DNA from: an uncultured Methanosarcinales archaeon | Lineage (GTDB): Archaea > Nanobdellota > Nanobdellia > Woesearchaeales > JAGVZT01 | Length of the DNA: 64,000 nucleotides | Direction of reading: 5' to 3' | NCBI GenBank assembly: GCA_964419615.1 | Contig: CAYQPU010000001.1 | Span: forward strand, 7,857 to 71,856 | Part shown: positions 879 through 34,931 of the stretch, in pieces | How the letters are laid out: each line of letters begins with the position of its first letter | Numbering within the stretch: the stretch's first letter is position 1 | Translations under genes and position numbers: made by a program | Notes under the pieces: generated by a model | What the model was told of the DNA's origin: nothing | Seen by the model: the letters and a program-made list of their open reading frames with translations, nothing else | The model's database searches: none

Positions 879-1004
879 GGGCCCGTAGCTCAGTTGGTAG
901 AGCGTCGCCCTTGCATAGGGAGATTCTTCCAAAAGACAGGCGGAGGCCTCGGGTTCGAAAACGGGATCCAATTATGGAACCGGGTGAAAGCCCCGACGGG
1001 TCCA
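879..1004 (+). tRNA. tRNA-Ala (anticodon TGC) with two introns (one after anticodon position 37, one in the T-loop)
   Basis: GGGCCCG acceptor 5' arm / CGGGTCC 3' arm plus discriminator A; D-arm GCTCAGTTGGTAGAGC; anticodon loop CTTGCA; removal of about 22 nt (tagggagattcttccaaaagac) and about 32 nt (acgggatccaattatggaaccgggtgaaagcc) restores anticodon and T stems; sits in 16S-23S spacer as is typical for archaea. Confidence 0.7.
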
Positions 1005-2247
1005 TTTTCGATTACAGAAAATGACCCTCCGAACGAAAGTGAGGTTGGGTCAATTTCATATTCAATCACAATCATTTAATCAAAATGGTTTGGTTATCAG
1101 CAGAATACCAAACCTTCGGCTAAAACATCATGTTAATGCGGCCATGCATAAGTTGGAAAGGCTAAGCTATTAGGTGGATGACTCGGCTCAAGAGCTGATG
1201 AAGGGCGTGACAAGCTACGATATGCTTTGGCGAGCCGCATGTAGGCATTGAACCAAAGATACCTCAATCAGACTTCTGCTTGAATCAGTAATGATGGGAA
1301 ACGCAGGGAATTGAAACATCTTAGTACCTGCAGGAAAAGAAATTAATAAAGATGCTGCTAGTAACAGCGAGTGAAAGCAGCTTAAGGCAAACTGAATCCC
1401 TTTTTGAAAGAGAAGGGAGATGTGGTGTTATAAGACTACCTTTAAGCCCTATTCTGGCAACCTAAACTCTCCTGGAAAGGAGGACCATAGAGTGTGATAG
1501 TCACGTAAGGGTAACTGGGATGGGCCATGGTATGTTCTTGAGTACCTTTCGCTGGAAACCGAGAGGGAATTTGGGAGGCATCAACTTCCAACCTTAAATA
1601 CTACTTGAGTCCGATAGCAAACAAGTACTGTGAAGGAAAGTTGAAAAGAACCCCTAACAGGGAGTTAAAAGAACCTGAAACCTAATAGCGATCGTGTGGT
1701 ACCGCTCTACGGAGTTGTACCGTTCGTTTCGAATAACGTGCCAGGGAGTGTATTTGTGTGGCAAGGATAATCTAAAAGAGGATCCAAAGCGAAAGCAACA
1801 AACCCGCAGCTTGCGAGGGGTGGGGTGTGAAAGCGCCCATAGTCACATGGATACGATCTGAAGCTGGGCGATCTACGCTTGGGCAAGGTGAAGCCAGAGT
1901 AAAATTTGGTGGAGGCCTGAAAAGGTTCTATGGACAAGTGTTCTTCTGATCTGAGTGTAGGGGTAAAATGCTAATCGAGCCCAGCAATAGCAGGTTCCTG
2001 CCAAAGTTGGCTGTAGTCAAATCTCGGTGGAGATGGCTGAGGAGGTAGAGATACGGATTGAGAGTTTAGGCGTGGAGACACGTCGGCACTCTGTCCAACT
2101 CCGAATGCTTCAGCATCATAGATGCCGGGGGACGGGGGCGTGGGGTAAGCCCATGTCCCGAGAGGGGAACAACCCAGACTATAGTTAAGGTCCCAAAGTA
2201 CTAGTTAAGTGTTAAAGGCTAAAGAGTGTTCATTTCCCAAGACAGCG

Positions 2248-2280
<33 letters not shown>

Positions 2281-3108
2281 AAGTGCGTAACAGCTTACTC
2301 GTCAAGGAAGTGGGCCTCGAAAATGGACGGGGCTAAACTAGTCACCGATACTATAGAGTTTTGTAAAAAATTTGGTAGGCAGGCGTTCTGTTTGGATAGA
2401 AGTGTGTCTGCGAAGATGCATGGACCGGATAGAAATGAGGATCCTGGCGGTAGTAGGATCTGAGCAGCTTGAGAATAGCTGCCACCGTAAGGGCAAGGGT
2501 TCCTTGACAATGCAAATCAGTCAAGGGTAAGTTGGTCCTAACTGACTTCATAACTAGAAGTAATGAGGAAAGGGAAACAGGTTAATATTCCTGTACTATT
2601 TAGGTATCCGGCGACGAAAGCCTTGTTTCTGACGCTTTTGGGTAAGTTATCACTGTTTGTCTGCAGTGTTAACCAGCATAAATCTGTGGAGTATCTTAAT
2701 GATGAGAAACAGATTAAAGCTGGGATGAGCATCCTTCTGGGATGTATAGCTGATCCCTGGAGCCCGTGAAAAAGGAACAAGGATAAATTCTAAATAACCA
2801 TACCCAGAACCGACACAGGTGCCCCTAGGTGAGAAGCCTAAGGTGTGAAGGGACAATCCAATTAAGGGAAATCGGCAAATTAGCCCCGTGTCTTCGGTGG
2901 AAGGGGTCCCTGCGATTGTGTTCGTATGAATGCGATTACAGGGCGCAGTGACAAGGGGGGTCCGACTGTTTAACAAAAACATAGCCAACTGCCAACCCGT
3001 AAGGGCTAGTATAGTTGGTGACGTCTGCCCACTACCAGTACTTTAAACTCCTTTACAAGGGAGCGAAGAGCTGGCAAAGGGCGGGAGTAACTATAACTCT
3101 CTTAAGGT

Positions 3109-3830
3109 GAAAATCGTTGCCTTATCAAAATCTAGCTATATGCTCGAATATCTGGTGTATCTCATGCTACCAGTGGACATATGTGCGTAAGACTTTTTAA
3201 GTTTGATCACATATGAAGACTGGTGAAAATGCAATGAGTGCAGACAACGAGCAGGAAAGGCTAAATACAGATTGGGTTGTTGGATTCGTTGATGGTGAAG
3301 GATGCTTTCATGTTTCAATTAATAAAATTTCAAAGATGTCTTTGGGATGGCAAGTTCTTCCAGAATTTCGTGTTGTTCAACATGAAAAAGAAGTGAAGAT
3401 TTTGTTACAATTACAAAGGTTTTTTGGAATGGGAATTGTTGTTAAAAATCATGGAAGCAGAAAAGAGCTAAGAATAAGAGGTCATAGTACTCTTAAAGAA
3501 TTAGTTCGATTCTTCAATAAAAATCCACTGAGAACATCAAAACAAAAAGATTTTGAGATATTTGCTCAAATAATCAGTTTGATGGATCAAGGGAAGCATC
3601 TCACAAGAGATGGTTTGAAGAAAATTTCAATTCTTCGGTCAAAAATGAACCGACAAGTTAAACCAAAGTATTTAGAATCCCCAGAGACTATACGCTAGAC
3701 ACATAATATTGTGTGAAGACATAGTCCGACCCACTAGGCGACTAGTGGAGGTGTGCAGAAATGTGCATCCACCATCATCAAGATGGTCAAAACCCTAACT
3801 GTATTTTATGGGTTTAAAGTAACAGATGTG
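3109..3830 (+). mobile_element. 23S rRNA intron carrying a homing-endonuclease ORF, inserted between CTCTTAAGGT and AGCGAAAT(A/T)CCTTGTCG
   Basis: Conserved 23S sequence is colinear with E. coli/archaeal 23S on both sides of a ~720-bp insert; the insert contains a LAGLIDADG ORF. Confidence 0.7.
3213..3698 (+). CDS. LAGLIDADG homing endonuclease (single-motif, I-CreI-like), intron-encoded
   Basis: Motif VVGFVDGEGCF followed by a basic/aromatic pattern (QLQRFF, KN...KQKDFE) typical of single-motif LAGLIDADG enzymes; located inside the 23S intron. Confidence 0.8.
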   Translation: MKTGENAMSADNEQERLNTDWVVGFVDGEGCFHVSINKISKMSLGWQVLPEFRVVQHEKEVKILLQLQRFFGMGIVVKNHGSRKELRIRGHSTLKELVRFFNKNPLRTSKQKDFEIFAQIISLMDQGKHLTRDGLKKISILRSKMNRQVKPKYLESPETIR

Positions 3831-4795
3831 AGCGAAATACCTTGTCGTTTGAATGACGACGTGCATGAATGACGTAACGAGATCCCCACTGTCCCTAATT
3901 GGAACCCTCTGAACACTCTATTCTGGTGCAGAAGCCAGAGATTTCCAGTGGGAAGTGAAGACCCCGTGAAACTTTACTGTAGCCTGTTGCTGTGATGCGG
4001 ATGTTGTTGTATAGTGTAGGTGGGAGTTGCTAAAACTTGAGTCGAAAGACGAGAGATCAGACGACAATGTAACACCACTCTTCATAATTTGCATTGCTTA
4101 CTCGAAAGAGGACACCAATTGGCAGACAGTTTGGCTGGGGTGGCACGCTGCTGAAATAATATCAGCAGCGCCCAAAGGTTGACTCAACGCGGTCGGAAAT
4201 CGCGTGTGGAGTGCAAGGGCATAAGTCAGCCTGAATGGATTCTCACTAAGACAGATTCCAGCAAAGAAATTTTGGCCTAGCGAACCTCTATGTCCTCCTT
4301 GATGGGGGCTAGAGATGACCGAAAAGTTACTCCGGGGATAACAGAGTTGTCTCCCCCGAGCGTTCACAGTTGCTTGCGGCTATTGGTCGCAAGCGACCGA
4401 ACAGAGCGACGGGGAGGCTTGCTACATCGATGTCGGCTCTTCCTATCCTGGTGGTGCAGAAGCCACCAAGGGTGGGGGTGTTCACCCATTAAAAGGGATC
4501 GTGAGCTGGGTTCACAACGTTGCGAGACAGTTGGTTTAATATCTACTGGAAATGTAAAATGTCTGAGAGGAAGGATGTCAAAGTACGAGAGGAACTGGCA
4601 TTCGAGGCCTCTGGTCTACCGGTTGTCTGACAAGGCAGGCCGGGCAGCTACGCCTTAGAGGATAAGAGCTGAAAGCATCTAAGCTCGAAACCTCCCCCGA
4701 AAATAGACATTTATAGAACTCCTGCAGAACACAGGTTTGATGGAGCTGGGGTGTAAGTACCAAGGTAACGAGGTATTCAGCCCGCAGCCACCAAA

Positions 4796-4903
4796 AGTTC
4801 TTACTCAACTATGCATGGTTTTTTCATTTTTTTTTCTATTTCATTTCAACATAAACAATATTGGTATAGTGTAAGCTATGTTGTTATGATTAGTACAATA
4901 ATT
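4796..4903 (+). repeat. Direct repeat copy 1: 23S 3' terminus (agttcttactcaactatgcatgg) plus about 85 bp of trailer
   Basis: Imperfect direct repeat (roughly 80 percent identity by eye) with 5888-5986; both contain agttcttactcaactatgcatgg, ataaaca(t/a)tattg and agctatgttgt-attattagtacaa. Confidence 0.75.
4819..4837 (+). terminator. T-tracts (TTTTTTcaTTTTTTTTT) immediately after the 23S 3' end; probable rRNA operon terminator
   Basis: Archaeal termination occurs at oligo-T; located directly after helix-1 closing strand. Confidence 0.35.
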
Positions 4904-4954
4904 CCAATTGGAACTAAAATTAAATTATATGCAAAAAATAAAAAATTAGAATTG

Positions 4955-5788
4955 TTATCTTAGTTTTTTCTTCTCTTTTTTCTTTGGTAAAAAGTTTTCT
5001 TTAGAAATAGTTGATTTTCCTAAACGTTTTTCAACGCTTTTTCTTGCGTCATTTGCAGCTTCTCCACCTTCTTTAGCAGAATCTTTGCATTCACCAAATC
5101 CTTGAGAATTTCTATCTTTTGTAATTTCAGTAGTTGTCTTTTCTCCAAGCATAGTAAATATTAACTCTAAATCAGTCATATGATCCCTTAAATTTTGGTT
5201 TTTCTTTTGTAGTCGCTTGAATTCTTTATACTCTCCCACTGTTTTTCCAAATGTTGCTTTACTAATCTCATTTGTTAATATTGCAAATTCTTTTTCTGTT
5301 TTGATATCCCTATTTTCCCATTCGTCAGTCAATTCTTGTCTTACAGAAATTCCTCTTAGTCTTTTGTCAATCCACTCTTTAGGATAACCTTTGAGTTCAT
5401 AGTATTCTTTTATTCTATTTTGTCCAATTTCTGGATTTTCAATTTCTTCAATTCTTTCATATCCTACTTGTGCTAACCATTGTTTGAATGGTTCTGCTTT
5501 CGGAGAGGGTATTGCTTGTATTAGTCGAAAAATCTCTTTAGTGTTTCCTACATCTGTTAGTCGCATTTTACCATCAGGAGCAGACATTTTCAAAGCGTTA
5601 CAATTTGTAACGGTTTCATTTCCTTCATCTTTTAATCTTTTTTTGAGAACTCTCCAATAAATTTGAGGGTTATCACTTTCAGTTAAAACAGCTATGATGT
5701 CAACTATAGAGAAATACCATTCATCATTATTCCAGATTCGTCTTATTTTCTTGTCTTGAAAGACAACAAGTTTATTATTTTCTTCCAT
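4955..5788 (-). CDS. Bro-N domain / DinD-like (DNA-damage-inducible protein D family) protein, MGE-associated
   Basis: N-terminal Bro-N-like block (VVFQDKKIRRIWNNDEWYFSIVDIIAVL); C-terminal block KKNQNLRDHMTDLELIFTML resembles the DinD family; K-rich tail. Confidence 0.55.
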   Translation of the reverse strand: MEENNKLVVFQDKKIRRIWNNDEWYFSIVDIIAVLTESDNPQIYWRVLKKRLKDEGNETVTNCNALKMSAPDGKMRLTDVGNTKEIFRLIQAIPSPKAEPFKQWLAQVGYERIEEIENPEIGQNRIKEYYELKGYPKEWIDKRLRGISVRQELTDEWENRDIKTEKEFAILTNEISKATFGKTVGEYKEFKRLQKKNQNLRDHMTDLELIFTMLGEKTTTEITKDRNSQGFGECKDSAKEGGEAANDARKSVEKRLGKSTISKENFLPKKKEKKKLR

Positions 5789-5887
5789 TTATAAAGGAAT
5801 AAATTATTTATCTTTAAATACTCTACGTCAAAATGTCCAGTGGATAAACAAAACAACTAGAATCAACCGCAAAGGCCAGTTCCTAAC

Positions 5888-5986
5888 AGTTCTTACTCAA
5901 CTATGCATGGCTTTTTATTTTTTATTAATTTTCTACATAAACATTATTGACATAATGAGAGCTATGTTGTCATTATTAGTACAACA
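5888..5986 (+). repeat. Direct repeat copy 2 (duplicate of 23S 3' terminus plus trailer)
   Basis: See copy 1; the two copies bracket the DinD-like gene. Confidence 0.75.
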
Positions 5987-6083
5987 AAGATTATTATCTT
6001 AGAAGGAATTTATGTAATTAAAAATCAAAATTGTCAGAATTAATATAAATAGAATTTAATTCCCATAATTAAGGGGTTATTGA

Positions 6084-6803
6084 ATGAACAATAAAAAGGA
6101 AAGGCCATTTACAGAAATACTGTCAGAGATTGCAGAATATGAAGATGGAAATGTACTGCTGGCAGAGATACTTCAAGAGATCGGTAAGCATGATAATCAA
6201 AGAGTACTCAAAAAAATAGGCTTAAAAAATTGGTTCAAAGATCCTAAGAAATCCTATAAAGCATATTTTACCAGTCAGGATCAGTTAAAGGGGGATGTGG
6301 AAAAACTGTTAGTGGCCAATTCATCTATTGATAAAGTGTGCGAAGATCTGGAAGGATTGGAACATGAAGAACACTTCAAATACGGGAGTGTTAAGACCAC
6401 TTTTCCAGGTAGAATACTTATTCCCAATATTGGATGGATACCAGTTAATAGCGAGGCACATATTATACTAAGTAAAAGCTATAGAGAATGGTCAGAAAAA
6501 CCTATTGATATTGATGAACTTAAATTTGAATTAAATCCTTCTCAACTTTATGAAAAGATTGCTCAACATAGATTTAGTATGGGTTCGTGGATTGATGATC
6601 CGGGTTATGAAAGCGAATTACTTGATACAGTTGAAAGTGCATTGAAGTTAGATTATTTGCTTTTAGTGGATGAATATAAAGGTAAGCTTAGTAAACAAGT
6701 AGAAAAGTCTATCAGAATATATGATGTATATGCTTCAGATATGAAAATAACACAAGGTGGGAGATTGGTAAATTTAACCTCTAAATTTGTTGATTCTACA
6801 TAA
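6084..6803 (+). CDS. Hypothetical protein (orphan A), no recognisable domain
   Basis: 239-aa ORF with good coding appearance; first of three co-directional orphan genes. Confidence 0.5.
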   Translation: MNNKKERPFTEILSEIAEYEDGNVLLAEILQEIGKHDNQRVLKKIGLKNWFKDPKKSYKAYFTSQDQLKGDVEKLLVANSSIDKVCEDLEGLEHEEHFKYGSVKTTFPGRILIPNIGWIPVNSEAHIILSKSYREWSEKPIDIDELKFELNPSQLYEKIAQHRFSMGSWIDDPGYESELLDTVESALKLDYLLLVDEYKGKLSKQVEKSIRIYDVYASDMKITQGGRLVNLTSKFVDST

Positions 6804-6942
6804 AAATGCAATCAAGAAGATGATGTTGTTATGTTCTCTACAACAAAAGTTTATATACTAGTTACCACTCTTAAATAACAAATAATCGAAAGATTTATAT
6901 AGATGTAAATAAATCTTTAATGTAACAATTGGGGGTATTAGA

Positions 6943-7686
6943 ATGGGAAGAAATTTATCAAAAGATGTTTCAGATTTATTTAAAAATATGGTTTTAGCTG
7001 AGCAAACAGCTTTAAGTTTAGGATCTGAAGAAATAATAGAAATATTTGGTTATGGAACGGTTAGAGATATTGTTAAGCCTAATATTCCAGCATCATTTGT
7101 TGGCGCAGCATGGGATTATAATACAGAAAAAGTAGTAAGTTTTTCAGCAGAAAAAATGTTCAACTATGGTGGAGCTGCAGGAGCAATAACTCCTGGAAAT
7201 GAAATTCCTAATGAAACTGTTTTTGCAATGAAAACTGAAGCTGAAAGAACTGCAAGAAATAAAGCAGTAAGTGATTATGGTGATTTAATTGATGAAAAAG
7301 CACAGGAGGCAAAAGAATTTGCAAAAAGGATTACTGATGCTCAAGATTACTATGAATCTCCTCCAGAAGATGCAGATTATCAAACAATGCATGCAAATCT
7401 AGATTTTTTAATTAATGAATGTGGTACAACTTTTAGAACTCGCCCAGACACAACATACAGACAATTACAATTTGTTGTTAATAGAATTGAATCGCACATA
7501 GGATTATTCACTGAGAACCATCTATCTGAAATTCAAGATGAATTAGAACAATTAAGAGGACTTAAAAAATTCATAAAAGACAAAAAATATTTGGGTAGAG
7601 AAAAACAGTTTGAAAATACATTAGATCCTGAGGCTGTTGCTACAGTTAGGATGTATGAAATTGAACAAAGCAAGCAAAGTGAATAA
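6943..7686 (+). CDS. Hypothetical protein (orphan B)
   Basis: 247-aa ORF; 4-bp gap to next gene (operon-like). Confidence 0.55.
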   Translation: MGRNLSKDVSDLFKNMVLAEQTALSLGSEEIIEIFGYGTVRDIVKPNIPASFVGAAWDYNTEKVVSFSAEKMFNYGGAAGAITPGNEIPNETVFAMKTEAERTARNKAVSDYGDLIDEKAQEAKEFAKRITDAQDYYESPPEDADYQTMHANLDFLINECGTTFRTRPDTTYRQLQFVVNRIESHIGLFTENHLSEIQDELEQLRGLKKFIKDKKYLGREKQFENTLDPEAVATVRMYEIEQSKQSE

Positions 7687-7689
7687 AAG

Positions 7690-8778
7690 ATGAACAAAAA
7701 ACAAAAAAGAGTTGAGGATTTTGTAGTTGGAGTAAGTGATTGTGTTAAACAGCTTAATGCAATTGAACATCAACCAGAAATTAACCTTTGGCCTGTTTTT
7801 AATTTTGGTTTCGATTCTTATGTTTTCTATTTGTTCGTTGAACAGGGATTTTTAGGAAAGTATCACCACAATATGAATAGTAGACATCAATTTGAACAAG
7901 CAAGAAGAGATGCTGAAGATAGAGCTATTGGAGCAGATGATGAACTTGCCACTTTGTATAATGGTGTGAGACAGACTGCCTTTGAAGGGGACGACTTTGA
8001 AACTTTAACAGGTCTACTTGGACAATTAAAAGTTAAAGAAAATAGAGGTGACATTGGTTTTACTTGTCATCTGAACTTAGAAGAATTATACAGTGAAGCA
8101 GAGTTAACATTGGAAATTGCTGAAAGTTTAAGAGATCAAGGTAATATTGAAGCAAGATTTTTGGTTGATAGATTAGAAAACTTGCTTTCAAAAGACAAAA
8201 TTGGTGGTGCAAGAGGTCTCCCAGCAGACTATGTTGACCAAATGAGTATTGATTCGATTGCTAGAATCATGTTTAATGGTGATGCTCCAAGAAAAGTTCC
8301 AAAGTTCAAAGTGCCAAAAAGAAGTGGGGATATGTATGTTATTAAAACTGCTTTAGGTTTGAATGATATTGGAAGATTAACTAATGAATATGCTAAGGTT
8401 GGTGCATGTGAAAAATTCGAAATTTCCCCTGAACAAGCTGCAAGAGAAACTGTTGAACTGTTAGATGAACTTTGTATTACTTCAGGCGCAGTTGTCGATG
8501 CTGTTATGGGTTATATAAAGAATTTGAGTGAACCGAGTGGTCCTTATTCAAAAAAAGAGAGAGGATTTACAAGAGGAAGATGGGCTCATCCAAGACCTGG
8601 TATTGAAACAACATGCTACTGTGTTAAAGATATGCTGAAAGAATGTGCTGCTTTTGATAATAAAACAACAGTAGATAATATTAGAAGAGAATCTCTAAAA
8701 GTGTATGCTAATTCAAGAGGAAAACACCTCCAAATTAGACATGTTACTGGACTTGAATATGTTCCTGTTGTTATCTGA
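7690..8778 (+). CDS. Hypothetical protein (orphan C)
   Basis: 362-aa ORF tightly coupled to orphan B; converges on and overlaps the membrane operon end by 8 nt. Confidence 0.55.
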   Translation: MNKKQKRVEDFVVGVSDCVKQLNAIEHQPEINLWPVFNFGFDSYVFYLFVEQGFLGKYHHNMNSRHQFEQARRDAEDRAIGADDELATLYNGVRQTAFEGDDFETLTGLLGQLKVKENRGDIGFTCHLNLEELYSEAELTLEIAESLRDQGNIEARFLVDRLENLLSKDKIGGARGLPADYVDQMSIDSIARIMFNGDAPRKVPKFKVPKRSGDMYVIKTALGLNDIGRLTNEYAKVGACEKFEISPEQAARETVELLDELCITSGAVVDAVMGYIKNLSEPSGPYSKKERGFTRGRWAHPRPGIETTCYCVKDMLKECAAFDNKTTVDNIRRESLKVYANSRGKHLQIRHVTGLEYVPVVI

Positions 8779-10426
8779 TAGCAGTTTGTAGTTCTCTTCT
8801 CGCTTGCTTATAGAGATTTTCGTGACTACTTAATTCATTTCTTTGTTCCTGCAATTTCATTAAACGGCCATCATCTCTTTCTAAGTTTCTAACCATCCTC
8901 AAGCATTTATTGATCTTTTCTCTCACATCACTTAAGATTGTCACTCTTGGACTTCTCCAGTATCCTTCCAATTCTCCCTTTATACCATCAAACTCATTTT
9001 GTTCTTGCTGAAGATTTTTATATTCATCTTTTAAATTCCAAGAACATCTTCCAGTAATCCCATCTGAATCTGTTATCTCTGCTTTAAGGTCCTTTAAGGA
9101 AGCCTTATAATGGTCTAGATGATCTTTTAATGTCTTATGGTGGCCTCTTGCAGTATTCTTTTCAGCTCCGTCTGTCATCCTGTCAACTTGCTGGCTCAAT
9201 TGATTTGCTTCATTTAGCAAGGTTTGATATTTTTTATCTTCCATAACTTCTTTCTTTGAGATCTTAATCACATCTACAACAATTTCCAGACTCTTTTTAA
9301 TTTCCTTAGATATAACACTTACTCTTCCAATAATTGTCTTAATAAGAGCATGTCTTTTTGGAATACTCTTTGCTCTCTCACCTTCACTAACAGTTACTCC
9401 CAATTCCTGATCTATCTGCTCAAGTTTTGTTACTGCTGCTTCAAGCTTTACAAGATCCTGCTCCATGTGTTCATTGCTTCTATGCAAGCTTGACTTTAGT
9501 TGAGTATTTTGTGTAGCGTATTTATGTTTCTTTTCTCGAAACTCCTCAACTTCTTTATCCTTGGTGGTCATATTGCTCCACCATTCTCTTAGTTTTCCAC
9601 CAGCTTCCATTGTTGGGTCTGCTTCTGCTGCTCCTTTCCATGCACCACCTATACCTTTTACTGTATATCCAAGTGTCATCAACATAAGTATTCCTTCCAT
9701 AACACTAAAGATTACCATATAAGGTCCAGTTATATCTGGAGCCGGAGGTGCTGCAGATACTGCAAAAGCACAAACTATTGTTGAAAATAATACCATTGAT
9801 AGAATTGATTTCTTTTTCCTTTTGTTAAAAATTAATCCAAAAGGTAAAAAAACAGGATATGGTTTTAAGTAAGTTGCCAAATTATTTACAGCAGTAGCAA
9901 ATTGAGCTTTTGTACTTCCCACTATTAACAAAGTGATTAGACTTAATCCAGCTTTGATCCAATTATTTCTCGGTGTACTTGGTAATCGAAAAATGAGAAT
10001 CAACATTACTACAACTACTAATGACATCATAATAAAAATAAGACCTGTTATCCAATTCCCGAATAAGGCATAGAAAAATCTTGGCTGAAAATTCATAAGA
10101 ACTGCTATCATTGCTGTTAAAGCACCACAAACCATCATCCTAATTCTTAGAGGAATTGGTACCAAACCAGTTAATCCATATAAAATTGCGAATACGATAA
10201 TTGCAGAAAAAGCAATTAATATCCCAAAAGCCCTTGCTGGTGAACCAAATAATGGTAGTGAGAATATTTGTTCAACAAACCCAAAAGCATCAGCCACTAA
10301 TTTTACCAACTCTTGAAATTGGTTTCCTGCTGGAGCTCTTCTTGGTTGAGCATACACCATAGTAAAACCCAATAATAATATTAACACAATCATCAATCCA
10401 ATTTTTGTTCTCTTTTTCATTTTCAT
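8771..10426 (-). CDS. Polytopic membrane protein with about 300-aa C-terminal coiled-coil region; N-terminal module paralogous to 11479-12105 product
   Basis: Signal peptide ending VYAQ, then shared block NQFQ(E/D)L..L..(A/V)F.F...(I/M).LP(L/M)F..P..AFG, several TM helices, then heptad-rich charged C-terminus. Confidence 0.6.
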   Translation of the reverse strand: MKMKKRTKIGLMIVLILLLGFTMVYAQPRRAPAGNQFQELVKLVADAFGFVEQIFSLPLFGSPARAFGILIAFSAIIVFAILYGLTGLVPIPLRIRMMVCGALTAMIAVLMNFQPRFFYALFGNWITGLIFIMMSLVVVVMLILIFRLPSTPRNNWIKAGLSLITLLIVGSTKAQFATAVNNLATYLKPYPVFLPFGLIFNKRKKKSILSMVLFSTIVCAFAVSAAPPAPDITGPYMVIFSVMEGILMLMTLGYTVKGIGGAWKGAAEADPTMEAGGKLREWWSNMTTKDKEVEEFREKKHKYATQNTQLKSSLHRSNEHMEQDLVKLEAAVTKLEQIDQELGVTVSEGERAKSIPKRHALIKTIIGRVSVISKEIKKSLEIVVDVIKISKKEVMEDKKYQTLLNEANQLSQQVDRMTDGAEKNTARGHHKTLKDHLDHYKASLKDLKAEITDSDGITGRCSWNLKDEYKNLQQEQNEFDGIKGELEGYWRSPRVTILSDVREKINKCLRMVRNLERDDGRLMKLQEQRNELSSHENLYKQARRELQTAIR

Positions 10427-10438
10427 ACCTCTTATTGT

Positions 10439-34541: not shown

Positions 34542-34931
34542 AATTTTTACAACTAACACACTGGACACTGGACATTGTGATGTGAGGTATTTAAACAAAT
34601 TTGTCTGATCTACTCCCTGAGGTGATGTTAATGGAAAATACAAGTAATATCCAGGAACTATTTTTTGAGCAGGTTAAGCAAATGACTTTAAGAGGTGGTA
34701 CAAATGCTTGATTATTATTCAGAAGAAGAATTGGAAAGTGGTGTTAGTGATGGTAGTGTAGCAGCTGGAGACTGTGCTTTTATGAGAGGTTATCTAGATG
34801 CAGCCTAATTATATGGATTGGAAGGATTACTCTAAAAAGGCTGATTTTTTTAATCTTTTTTATTTTCAGCAGCAAGTAAGAAAACAAAACTGTCACAAGC
34901 TATTTAAATAGAAGTTGATTACCATATATGT

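Follow-up and report, generated by a model that had tools for sequence, protein, structure and literature searches.

A duplicated 23S rRNA gene end around a Bro-N/DdrC-like candidate defence gene, a probable insertion scar in an archaeal ribosomal operon

Ribosomal operon and its duplicated 3' end

The window, by which we mean the whole 64-kb stretch of archaeal DNA analysed here, opens on a ribosomal operon. The 16S rRNA gene ends at position 736, and a 126-nt spacer tRNA lies at positions 879 to 1004, near the start of the window; at this length the tRNA is unusually long and probably bears an intron. Downstream lies a 23S rRNA gene with an intron-like insertion that holds a LAGLIDADG ORF (3213 to 3698), which is separate from the Bro-N cassette described below. 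The remaining 52 kb of the window contained no further rRNA or tRNA genes, and outside the operon the window has a G+C content of about 32%. The features around the 23S 3' end are as follows.

1147 to 4818, plus strand: archaeal 23S rRNA gene (Rfam RF02540, 2476 bits, model positions 1-2987)
4793 to 4901, plus strand: repeat copy 1, with the last ~22-26 nt of 23S (core 4796-4818), oligo-T tracts and ~83 nt of trailer
4902 to 4954, minus strand: spacer 3' of the cassette gene, with T-rich minus-strand tracts (TTTTTTATTTTTT), not common to copy 2
4955 to 5788, minus strand: cassette gene, 277 aa, with a Bro-N domain (residues 14-107) and an all-helical C-terminal domain
5789 to 5845, minus strand: cassette promoter-like module, with CACTGGACA at 5834-5842, a 13-nt spacer, TATA-like TATTTAAA at 5813-5820 and 24 nt to the ATG
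5846 to 5884, no strand assigned: 39-nt filler that separates copy 2 from the cassette promoter, neither 23S-like nor conserved where the cassette is found elsewhere
5885 to 5987, plus strand: repeat copy 2, an orphan 23S tail (core 5888-5910) with trailer
6084 to 6803, plus strand: first downstream gene, 239 aa, an orphan, with a TATA-like box at ~6040-6052

The 23-nt core AGTTCTTACTCAACTATGCATGG occurs exactly twice in the 64-kb window, at 4796-4818 and 5888-5910. No more sites were found in the whole window when up to 3 mismatches were allowed, and no match appeared in 100 dinucleotide-preserving shuffles. Gapped extension aligned 4793-4901 with 5885-5987, with 89 of 109 columns identical (81.7%), and blastn of the two copies returned 106 nt at 82% identity (E = 4e-18). 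These results uphold the initial annotation, which had reported that the 23S tail and its trailer recur ~1.09 kb further on at about 80% identity; a third copy was not found in the window. The left boundary of the similarity is abrupt, at 4793/5885, with no alignment upstream of either copy, while the right boundary is gradual: beyond 4901/5987 the best local score was 16 versus 14.1 +/- 2.3 in dinucleotide shuffles. The similarity is not limited to AT tracts, a possibility that the same annotation had raised, since complex blocks (ACATAAACA.TATTG, AGCTATGTTGT and ATTAGTACAA) are common to both copies.

The 3' end of 23S falls at 4814 by Rfam and at 4818-4821 by helix-1 pairing. As had been proposed for the repeated core, the 23S 3' core pairs with the 23S 5' end (1139-1175), the duplex reaching -24.4 kcal/mol compared to -14.1 +/- 3.3 in shuffles. 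The earlier figure of ~23 nt of 23S within the repeat holds for the core; with the Rfam end, the repeat comprises 19-22 nt of mature 23S and ~85 nt of trailer. Copy 1 is contiguous with the functional 23S and copy 2 with native downstream DNA, and beyond the repeat no LSU rRNA homology was detected to the left of or around copy 2. The arrangement was recovered in four contigs from three different samples at 99.9-100% identity, one of which (L002) covers both copies; this agreement indicates that it is not an assembly artefact. The contig is present in samples JGI 3300009008 and ENA ERZ23498668, ERZ23499038 and ERZ23499059.

The oligo-T tracts directly 3' of the core are retained in both copies, and copy 2 may possibly act as a terminator. 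It had further been suggested that genes downstream could receive their promoter from copy 2. The gene at 6084 has its TATA-like box outside the repeat, which ends at 5987, and thus promoter donation is not indicated. The protein encoded by that gene had no homologue besides itself among 5.8 billion proteins and matched no Pfam, PHROG or NCBIfam family, the NCBIfam rpsA model remaining sub-threshold (15 bits, cut-off 577). The spare 23S tail is very probably an insertion scar rather than a functional element.

Several other properties of the repeat were considered and rejected. The trailer had no Rfam match and displayed neither covariation nor a conserved fold between the two copies, which argues against a structured RNA, and as the 3' half of a processing stem it fared no better, leader-trailer duplexes being no more stable than shuffles. 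An extension of the repeat to the cassette stop codon was dismissed because the similarity between 4902-4957 and 5988-6056 is not significant, and an 18-nt inverted match near the sarcin-ricin loop, taken as possible additional rRNA homology, was at chance level.

The cassette gene, its borders and its relatives

The minus-strand gene at 4955-5788 is the only credible ORF between the copies, in line with the initial annotation of a lone DinD/Bro-N-like gene on the opposite strand. Its protein matches Bro-N (PF02498) with 50.2 bits (gathering cut-off 25.6, E = 4e-13), is a full-length match to phrog_15286 (E = 2.9e-99), and aligns over residues 1-275 of 277 with positions 1-275 of 286 of the PADLOC PDC-S13 profile PDLC04920 (E = 4.7e-122). 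The C-terminal domain is helical and DdrC-like, DdrC being the best structural match, although sequence identity to Deinococcus DdrC is 13%. The E. coli DinD equivalog model (NCBIfam NF008573) scored 19.9 bits against a cut-off of 242, and matched the C-terminal part only. Both DinD and DdrC are DNA-binding proteins of the DNA damage response.

No nuclease or recombinase fold and no integrase or transposase family was found in the cassette protein, nor were the nuclease domains of free-standing homing endonucleases (LAGLIDADG, GIY-YIG, HNH and PD-(D/E)XK). Given this, and DdrC as the best structural match, we rejected the idea that the cassette gene mobilises itself. Likewise, ORFs of at least 150 aa out to ~23 kb encoded no detectable integrase, recombinase or transposase. 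Altogether, the cassette protein is a PDC-S13-family Bro-N/DdrC-like DNA-binding protein, and its gene is a candidate anti-virus defence gene.

The PDC families, short for "phage defence candidates," were put forward because their genes occur embedded in defence systems already known (bioRxiv 10.1101/2024.01.29.577857). According to a survey of archaeal immunity, S13 occurs chiefly in bacteria and archaea gained it by horizontal transfer, and experimental validation is absent for most PDCs (PMC12988326). Whereas PDC-S13 was proposed from genes embedded in defence systems, the gene in the window is located behind an rRNA operon, between the 23S end and orphan genes; a homologue that does display such embedding is found at locus L066, between hsdM and hsdS of a type I restriction-modification (R-M) system. 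A term search of the preprint by Payne et al. (bioRxiv 10.1101/2024.01.29.577857) brought up no mention of flanking duplications.

Comparison with other family members delimits the cassette. On the 5' side, DNA homology to eight other loci stops at 5842-5844, and on the 3' side it stops at 4924-4960; these borders define a unit of ~0.92 kb. The distances from the cassette to the repeats are 39 and 53 nt. The promoter motif recurs at -49 to -58 from the ATG in ~20 archaeal loci, so that the promoter-like module moves together with the cassette gene. At the other end, the T-rich tract after the stop codon is likely the terminator of the cassette gene, and no inverted copy of the terminal motif was found downstream of the cassette. 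The left edge of copy 2 (5884/5885) is presumably an illegitimate junction.

More than 8000 homologues, 55-87% identical, were scored from DPANN archaea, other archaea and bacteria. The best 120 of these have identities of 73-87% and are mostly from DPANN archaea; the nearest are labelled Woesearchaeota or Nanoarchaeota by their sources, which makes a DPANN archaeon the likely origin of the window. In addition, the species-representative and metagenome homologues (53-81%) include Methanosarcinales, Thermoplasmatota, Bacteroidota, Treponema, Patescibacteria and others. Each of the two closest homologues (87% and 85%) forms a single-gene island among housekeeping genes, and the two neighbourhoods are unrelated. 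Together with the gene's own promoter module, these unrelated neighbourhoods indicate a horizontally moving cassette.

No virus was identified as the direct vector, since the homologues found on 29 viral contigs are at most 61% identical. Nor is the gene systematically linked to rRNA: 23S was nearby in 0 of 80 species-representative loci, and only one of 80 metagenome loci (L117) lies near 23S, at a distance of 880 nt and without a repeat. Many contigs of ~1.1 kb could have been taken for repeat-bounded elements; those of L088-L090 proved to be short low-coverage contigs running into the neighbour gene.

Flanking repeats at homologue loci

To find flanking repeats, each homologue's 500 nt of upstream sequence was compared with its 500 nt of downstream sequence, and local direct repeats scoring at least 40 were counted; as controls, the comparison was made again within these loci at sites 2-5 kb away. 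Direct repeats flanked 15 of 116 homologue loci compared to 20 of 599 shifted controls (odds ratio 4.3, P = 1e-4), with ~87% of homologue loci lacking one. Some of the repeats are uninformative, namely those at L085 and L091 (low complexity), L020 (a paralogue array) and L127 (a duplicated promoter module). Repeat lengths range from ~30 to 310 nt across loci, and hence there is no fixed stagger.

In the clear cases, the cassette is flanked on one side by the intact 3' end of a neighbour gene and on the other by an orphan duplicate of it. The closest parallel is a woesearchaeotal locus (L060), where the duplication takes in the last 10-19 nt of a tRNA-Cys gene and ~54 nt of trailer (77 columns, 83% identity, with a 43-nt identical run) and the cassette is convergent with the RNA gene, in the same geometry as in the window. 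In a member of the Cardiobacteriales (L066), the final 60 nt of hsdM recur at 97% identity. Furthermore, the repeat corresponds to the end of a 1076-aa ResIII-type gene at L139, to the 3' end of the upstream gene at L131 and to the end of an upstream aminotransferase gene at L096, while a 111-nt repeat at L125 (96% identity) starts 40 nt past a tRNA-Arg gene. The scar type thus recurs at a 23S end, a tRNA end and R-M gene ends.

At two protein-coding loci, the copies could be compared by codon position. Mismatches at third versus the other two positions numbered 22/8/6 at L131 and 16/4/3 at L139. This bias suggests that the copies diverged as functional coding ends before they were juxtaposed, such that one copy arrived with the cassette or else came from a second resident paralogue. 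The codon-position argument is carried over to the window from these other loci, and truncated resident paralogues could also explain the pattern at L131 and L139.

Origin of the duplication

The homologues in unrelated neighbourhoods, the end of DNA homology at the cassette borders, the orphan neighbour gene and the similar duplications flanking homologues elsewhere all agree with the earlier proposal that a cassette was inserted here by recombination, and it is very probable that the duplication is the insertion scar of a mobile cassette. As the particular route, we propose homology-anchored capture at the conserved 23S end, to which, reasoning by analogy, we assign an even chance. The cassette would be non-autonomous, a single gene of ~0.92 kb with its own promoter and terminator, and would have come on foreign DNA of a related archaeon that already had it behind its own 23S. 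The conserved 23S end would have been the sole homologous anchor. Entry could then have proceeded by homology-facilitated illegitimate recombination, in which one-sided homologous recombination is combined with an illegitimate far-end join, here at 5884/5885; alternatively, one crossover in the core could have taken in a circular fragment. The incoming tail and trailer (copy 1, from the donor) would complete the resident 23S, and the resident tail and trailer (copy 2) would be displaced 1.09 kb downstream, still in front of their native neighbours. Both entry routes would yield an intact 23S, non-conserved filler of 53 and 39 nt, a sharp left edge of copy 2 and a copy 2 that adjoins native DNA. 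With no nuclease, recombinase, integrase or transposase in the protein or in the surveyed ORFs, host recombination is the likely agent. On the other hand, if the crossover took place within the 23-nt core alone, this core offers little length for efficient homologous recombination.

A search with a 21-mer of the 23S end gave no match in metagenome_contigs, and neither this 21-mer nor the downstream protein led to cassette-free (empty-site) relatives or to a donor-like arrangement. Consequently, we infer the mechanism and its polarity, that is, the direction of transfer, the anchoring and the identity of the donor copy, by analogy with other loci.

The age of the event bears on the choice between capture and a simple target duplication, in which ~109 bp would have been doubled by a long staggered break or replication slippage and the once-identical copies would then have decayed. 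In the window, none of 23 rRNA positions differ between the copies, compared to 19 of 83 trailer columns (Fisher P = 0.011), and the trailers are ~77% identical. Target duplication would account for direct repeats that closely flank the insert, and the near-identical parallels at L066 (97%) and L125 (96%) would suit young duplications. It would, however, have to assume that the rRNA part of copy 1 was held by selection while that of copy 2 stayed unchanged by chance. If only copy 2 drifted, at half the observed divergence, the chance of 23 unchanged bases is ~0.06, which is not negligible; thus, the contrast between rRNA part and trailer is weak evidence against a simple duplication that decayed. 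Moreover, the third-codon bias at L131 and L139 is not expected under neutral decay of an orphan fragment, the variable repeat lengths speak against a fixed stagger, and neither a transposase nor terminal inverted repeats were found. We therefore regard target duplication as unlikely. The initial annotation had read the ~80% identity as the mark of an old event, a dating that the uneven distribution of differences and the codon-position bias do not favour: an identity of 23/23 in the rRNA part and ~77% in the trailer fits at least as well with donor-recipient divergence at the time of entry.

An improbable explanation is that the repeats are attL and attR, left over from site-specific integration by an integrase at the 3' terminus of a structured RNA gene, the integrase and the remainder of the element having been lost later or the integrase having acted in trans. 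The geometry is that of att sites overlapping RNA gene 3' ends, with an identical core and a regenerated end; the tRNA-Cys locus L060 is alike, and the repeat at L125 lies just past a tRNA-Arg gene. Nonetheless, no integrase or recombinase was found between the repeats or in ORFs of at least 150 aa to ~23 kb, several independent loci hold this one gene alone between repeats, and the other parallels (L066, L139, L131 and L096) are situated at the ends of protein-coding genes. In addition, a core-only exchange would not be expected to leave similarity of ~77% over ~85 nt to one side of the core.

Least credible, and in our view very improbable, is a repeat unrelated to the cassette, left by a second, mostly deleted rRNA operon or an older segmental duplication into which the cassette landed later: the perfect 23S tail in copy 2 and the occurrence of local repeats at ~3% of control positions would be in keeping with it, but 23S homology is lacking to the left of 5885, the remaining 52 kb hold no other rRNA or tRNA gene, the repeats closely abut the cassette, and members of this gene family have flanking repeats about four times as often as control positions do.

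Returning to homology-anchored capture, how single "embedded" defence genes enter operons and compact genomes is poorly understood, and the recurring scar points to this type of capture. We tentatively raise the possibility, to which we give less than an even chance, that PDC-S13 cassettes spread without a recombinase of their own, the conserved 3' end of a neighbour gene (23S, tRNA, hsdM or hsdR/res-type) serving as a one-sided anchor, and that other embedded defence candidates may do the same. If so, every such transfer would leave behind an orphan copy of the neighbour gene end, diverged at synonymous sites, the scars would record donor-recipient pairs, and in small DPANN genomes defence genes would generally have their landing pads at the ends of rRNA and tRNA genes. 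The present locus flags rRNA operon ends as possible entry points of foreign DNA in DPANN archaea.

Comparison with known systems

Three classes of insert differ from the locus. Archaeal rRNA introns differ in that the insert starts past the 23S 3' end and carries its gene on the opposite strand. Transposons and insertion sequences differ in that no transposase, no terminal inverted repeats and no target duplication of fixed length were found. Certain mobile ORFs, for example in fungal mitochondrial genes, bring along a replacement 3' end for the gene that hosts them, and the original one persists downstream as a pseudo-copy. The order of features is alike, in that an intact gene end is followed by a mobile ORF and this in turn by a diverged, orphan gene end; such ORFs, however, encode homing endonucleases, whereas the cassette protein is without a nuclease fold.

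Homology-facilitated illegitimate recombination, in which a one-sided anchor is combined with an illegitimate join, has been described for naturally transformable bacteria. The features of the window that would correspond to it are a conserved gene acting as the anchor at one end, an abrupt non-homologous junction at 5884/5885 and a displaced resident fragment, and the divergence of copies before juxtaposition, as deduced from L131 and L139, would be a further likeness. The process was described in bacteria, whereas the window is archaeal. The same product would be expected if a circular fragment had integrated by a Campbell-type single crossover.

Genomic islands at the 3' ends of tRNA and tmRNA genes are flanked by attL and attR, a duplication that regenerates the end of the RNA gene. 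In these islands, as in the window and at L060, the 3' end of an RNA gene is duplicated around foreign DNA and the RNA gene remains intact; the direct repeats of the window include and regenerate the 23S 3' end, as those of an integrative element do. Unlike the islands, the window has a 23S target and a single gene of ~1 kb, with no tyrosine or serine recombinase found between the repeats, where there is a single ORF, or in ORFs of at least 150 aa out to ~23 kb. In islands the similarity stops at a short core, whereas in the window it runs ~85 nt into the trailer at ~77%. Altogether, the locus resembles an RNA-gene-end integration scar, from which it is distinguished by its 23S target and by a single non-autonomous candidate defence gene that stands there without an integrase.

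Promoter-like module beyond the cassette

The promoter-like module of the PDC-S13 cassette, the one-gene unit behind the 23S rRNA gene, lies at 5811-5842 on the minus strand and consists of CACTGGACA, 12-13 nt and TATTTAAA. A second occurrence in the window, CACTGGACACTGGACATTGTGATGTGAGGTATTTAAAC at 34559-34590 on the plus strand, matches it at ~26 of 32 positions as counted by eye and precedes a 26-codon ORF (34632-34712). The module's 9-mer was found 3 times versus 0.26 expected. The second occurrence could be a shared operator or the solo remnant of a different cassette.

Several other cassette-bearing loci also carry the CACTGGACA motif apart from the cassette's own promoter, in some cases in tandem, and in L127 and L157 the entire promoter module is duplicated immediately 3' of the cassette. 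These extra sites may reflect a small regulon or a series of cassettes.

Extra CACTGGACA sites at other cassette-bearing loci
L008: 10227
L033: 8622 and 8629
L055: 8400
L113: 2761 and 2831
L126: 4548 and 4622
L127: 685 and 3194
L157: 1200

Genes within and following the rRNA operon

Two features within the rRNA operon, together with a gene pair farther downstream, are as follows.

Features in and behind the rRNA operon
879-1004, plus strand: 16S-23S spacer tRNA, 126 nt (Rfam tRNA, 47.8 bits)
3213-3698, plus strand: LAGLIDADG homing endonuclease ORF within the 23S (PF00961, E 4e-25)
12637-13543, plus strand: nucleotidyltransferase (PF18765/PF01909) and HepT-like HEPN RNase (PF01934)

ARAGORN called zero tRNAs across the whole window, the spacer tRNA included; this silence and the 126-nt length suggest that the spacer tRNA, probably Ala(TGC), is split by one or two non-canonical introns. 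The 23S (1147-4814) is 3668 nt long versus 2987 model positions and has the LAGLIDADG ORF inside it; thus, the rRNA gene holds an intron-like insertion that carries a gene for a homing endonuclease.

Downstream of the cassette, six ORFs in a row (239, 247, 362, 551, 349, and 208 aa) occupy 6084-12105. Searches of Pfam and PHROGs assigned none of them to an above-threshold family; one ORF gave a weak DUF7547 match (E 8e-4, under the cut-off), and the first (239 aa, from 6084) had zero homologues in a collection of 5.8 billion proteins. Two of the six look like membrane proteins, judging by eye from their signal-peptide-like hydrophobic N termini. After these family-less ORFs, 7 kb past the cassette, comes the 12637-13543 pair, which from its domains is a putative MNT-HepT toxin-antitoxin-type pair. 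The stretch that follows the rRNA operon, from ~4.9 to 13.5 kb, resembles an accessory region.

Cassette surroundings in other contigs

Two metagenome contigs from different samples, L003 and L004, cover window positions 4645-5872 and 4682-5872, respectively, and both end at 5872, 13 nt short of copy 2 of the duplicated 23S tail and trailer. This shared end could be an assembly-graph branch, i.e., strain variation at the cassette 5' junction.

In the Cardiobacteriales locus L066, the hsdS gene 3' of the embedded cassette (6934-8481, plus strand) encodes an N-terminal GIY-YIG nuclease domain joined to specificity domains.

Another PDC-S13 gene lies near a 23S end in L117, a 1.23-Mb metagenome contig.

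Features in L117
4001-4843, plus strand: PDC-S13 homologue (58% aa identity)
5725-8642, minus strand: another archaeal 23S

The homologue and the 23S 3' end are convergent and separated by 880 nt, which hold a single 135-aa ORF and no repeat. L117 is a second, independent instance of a PDC-S13 gene close to a 23S end, and its proximity may be a matter of chance.
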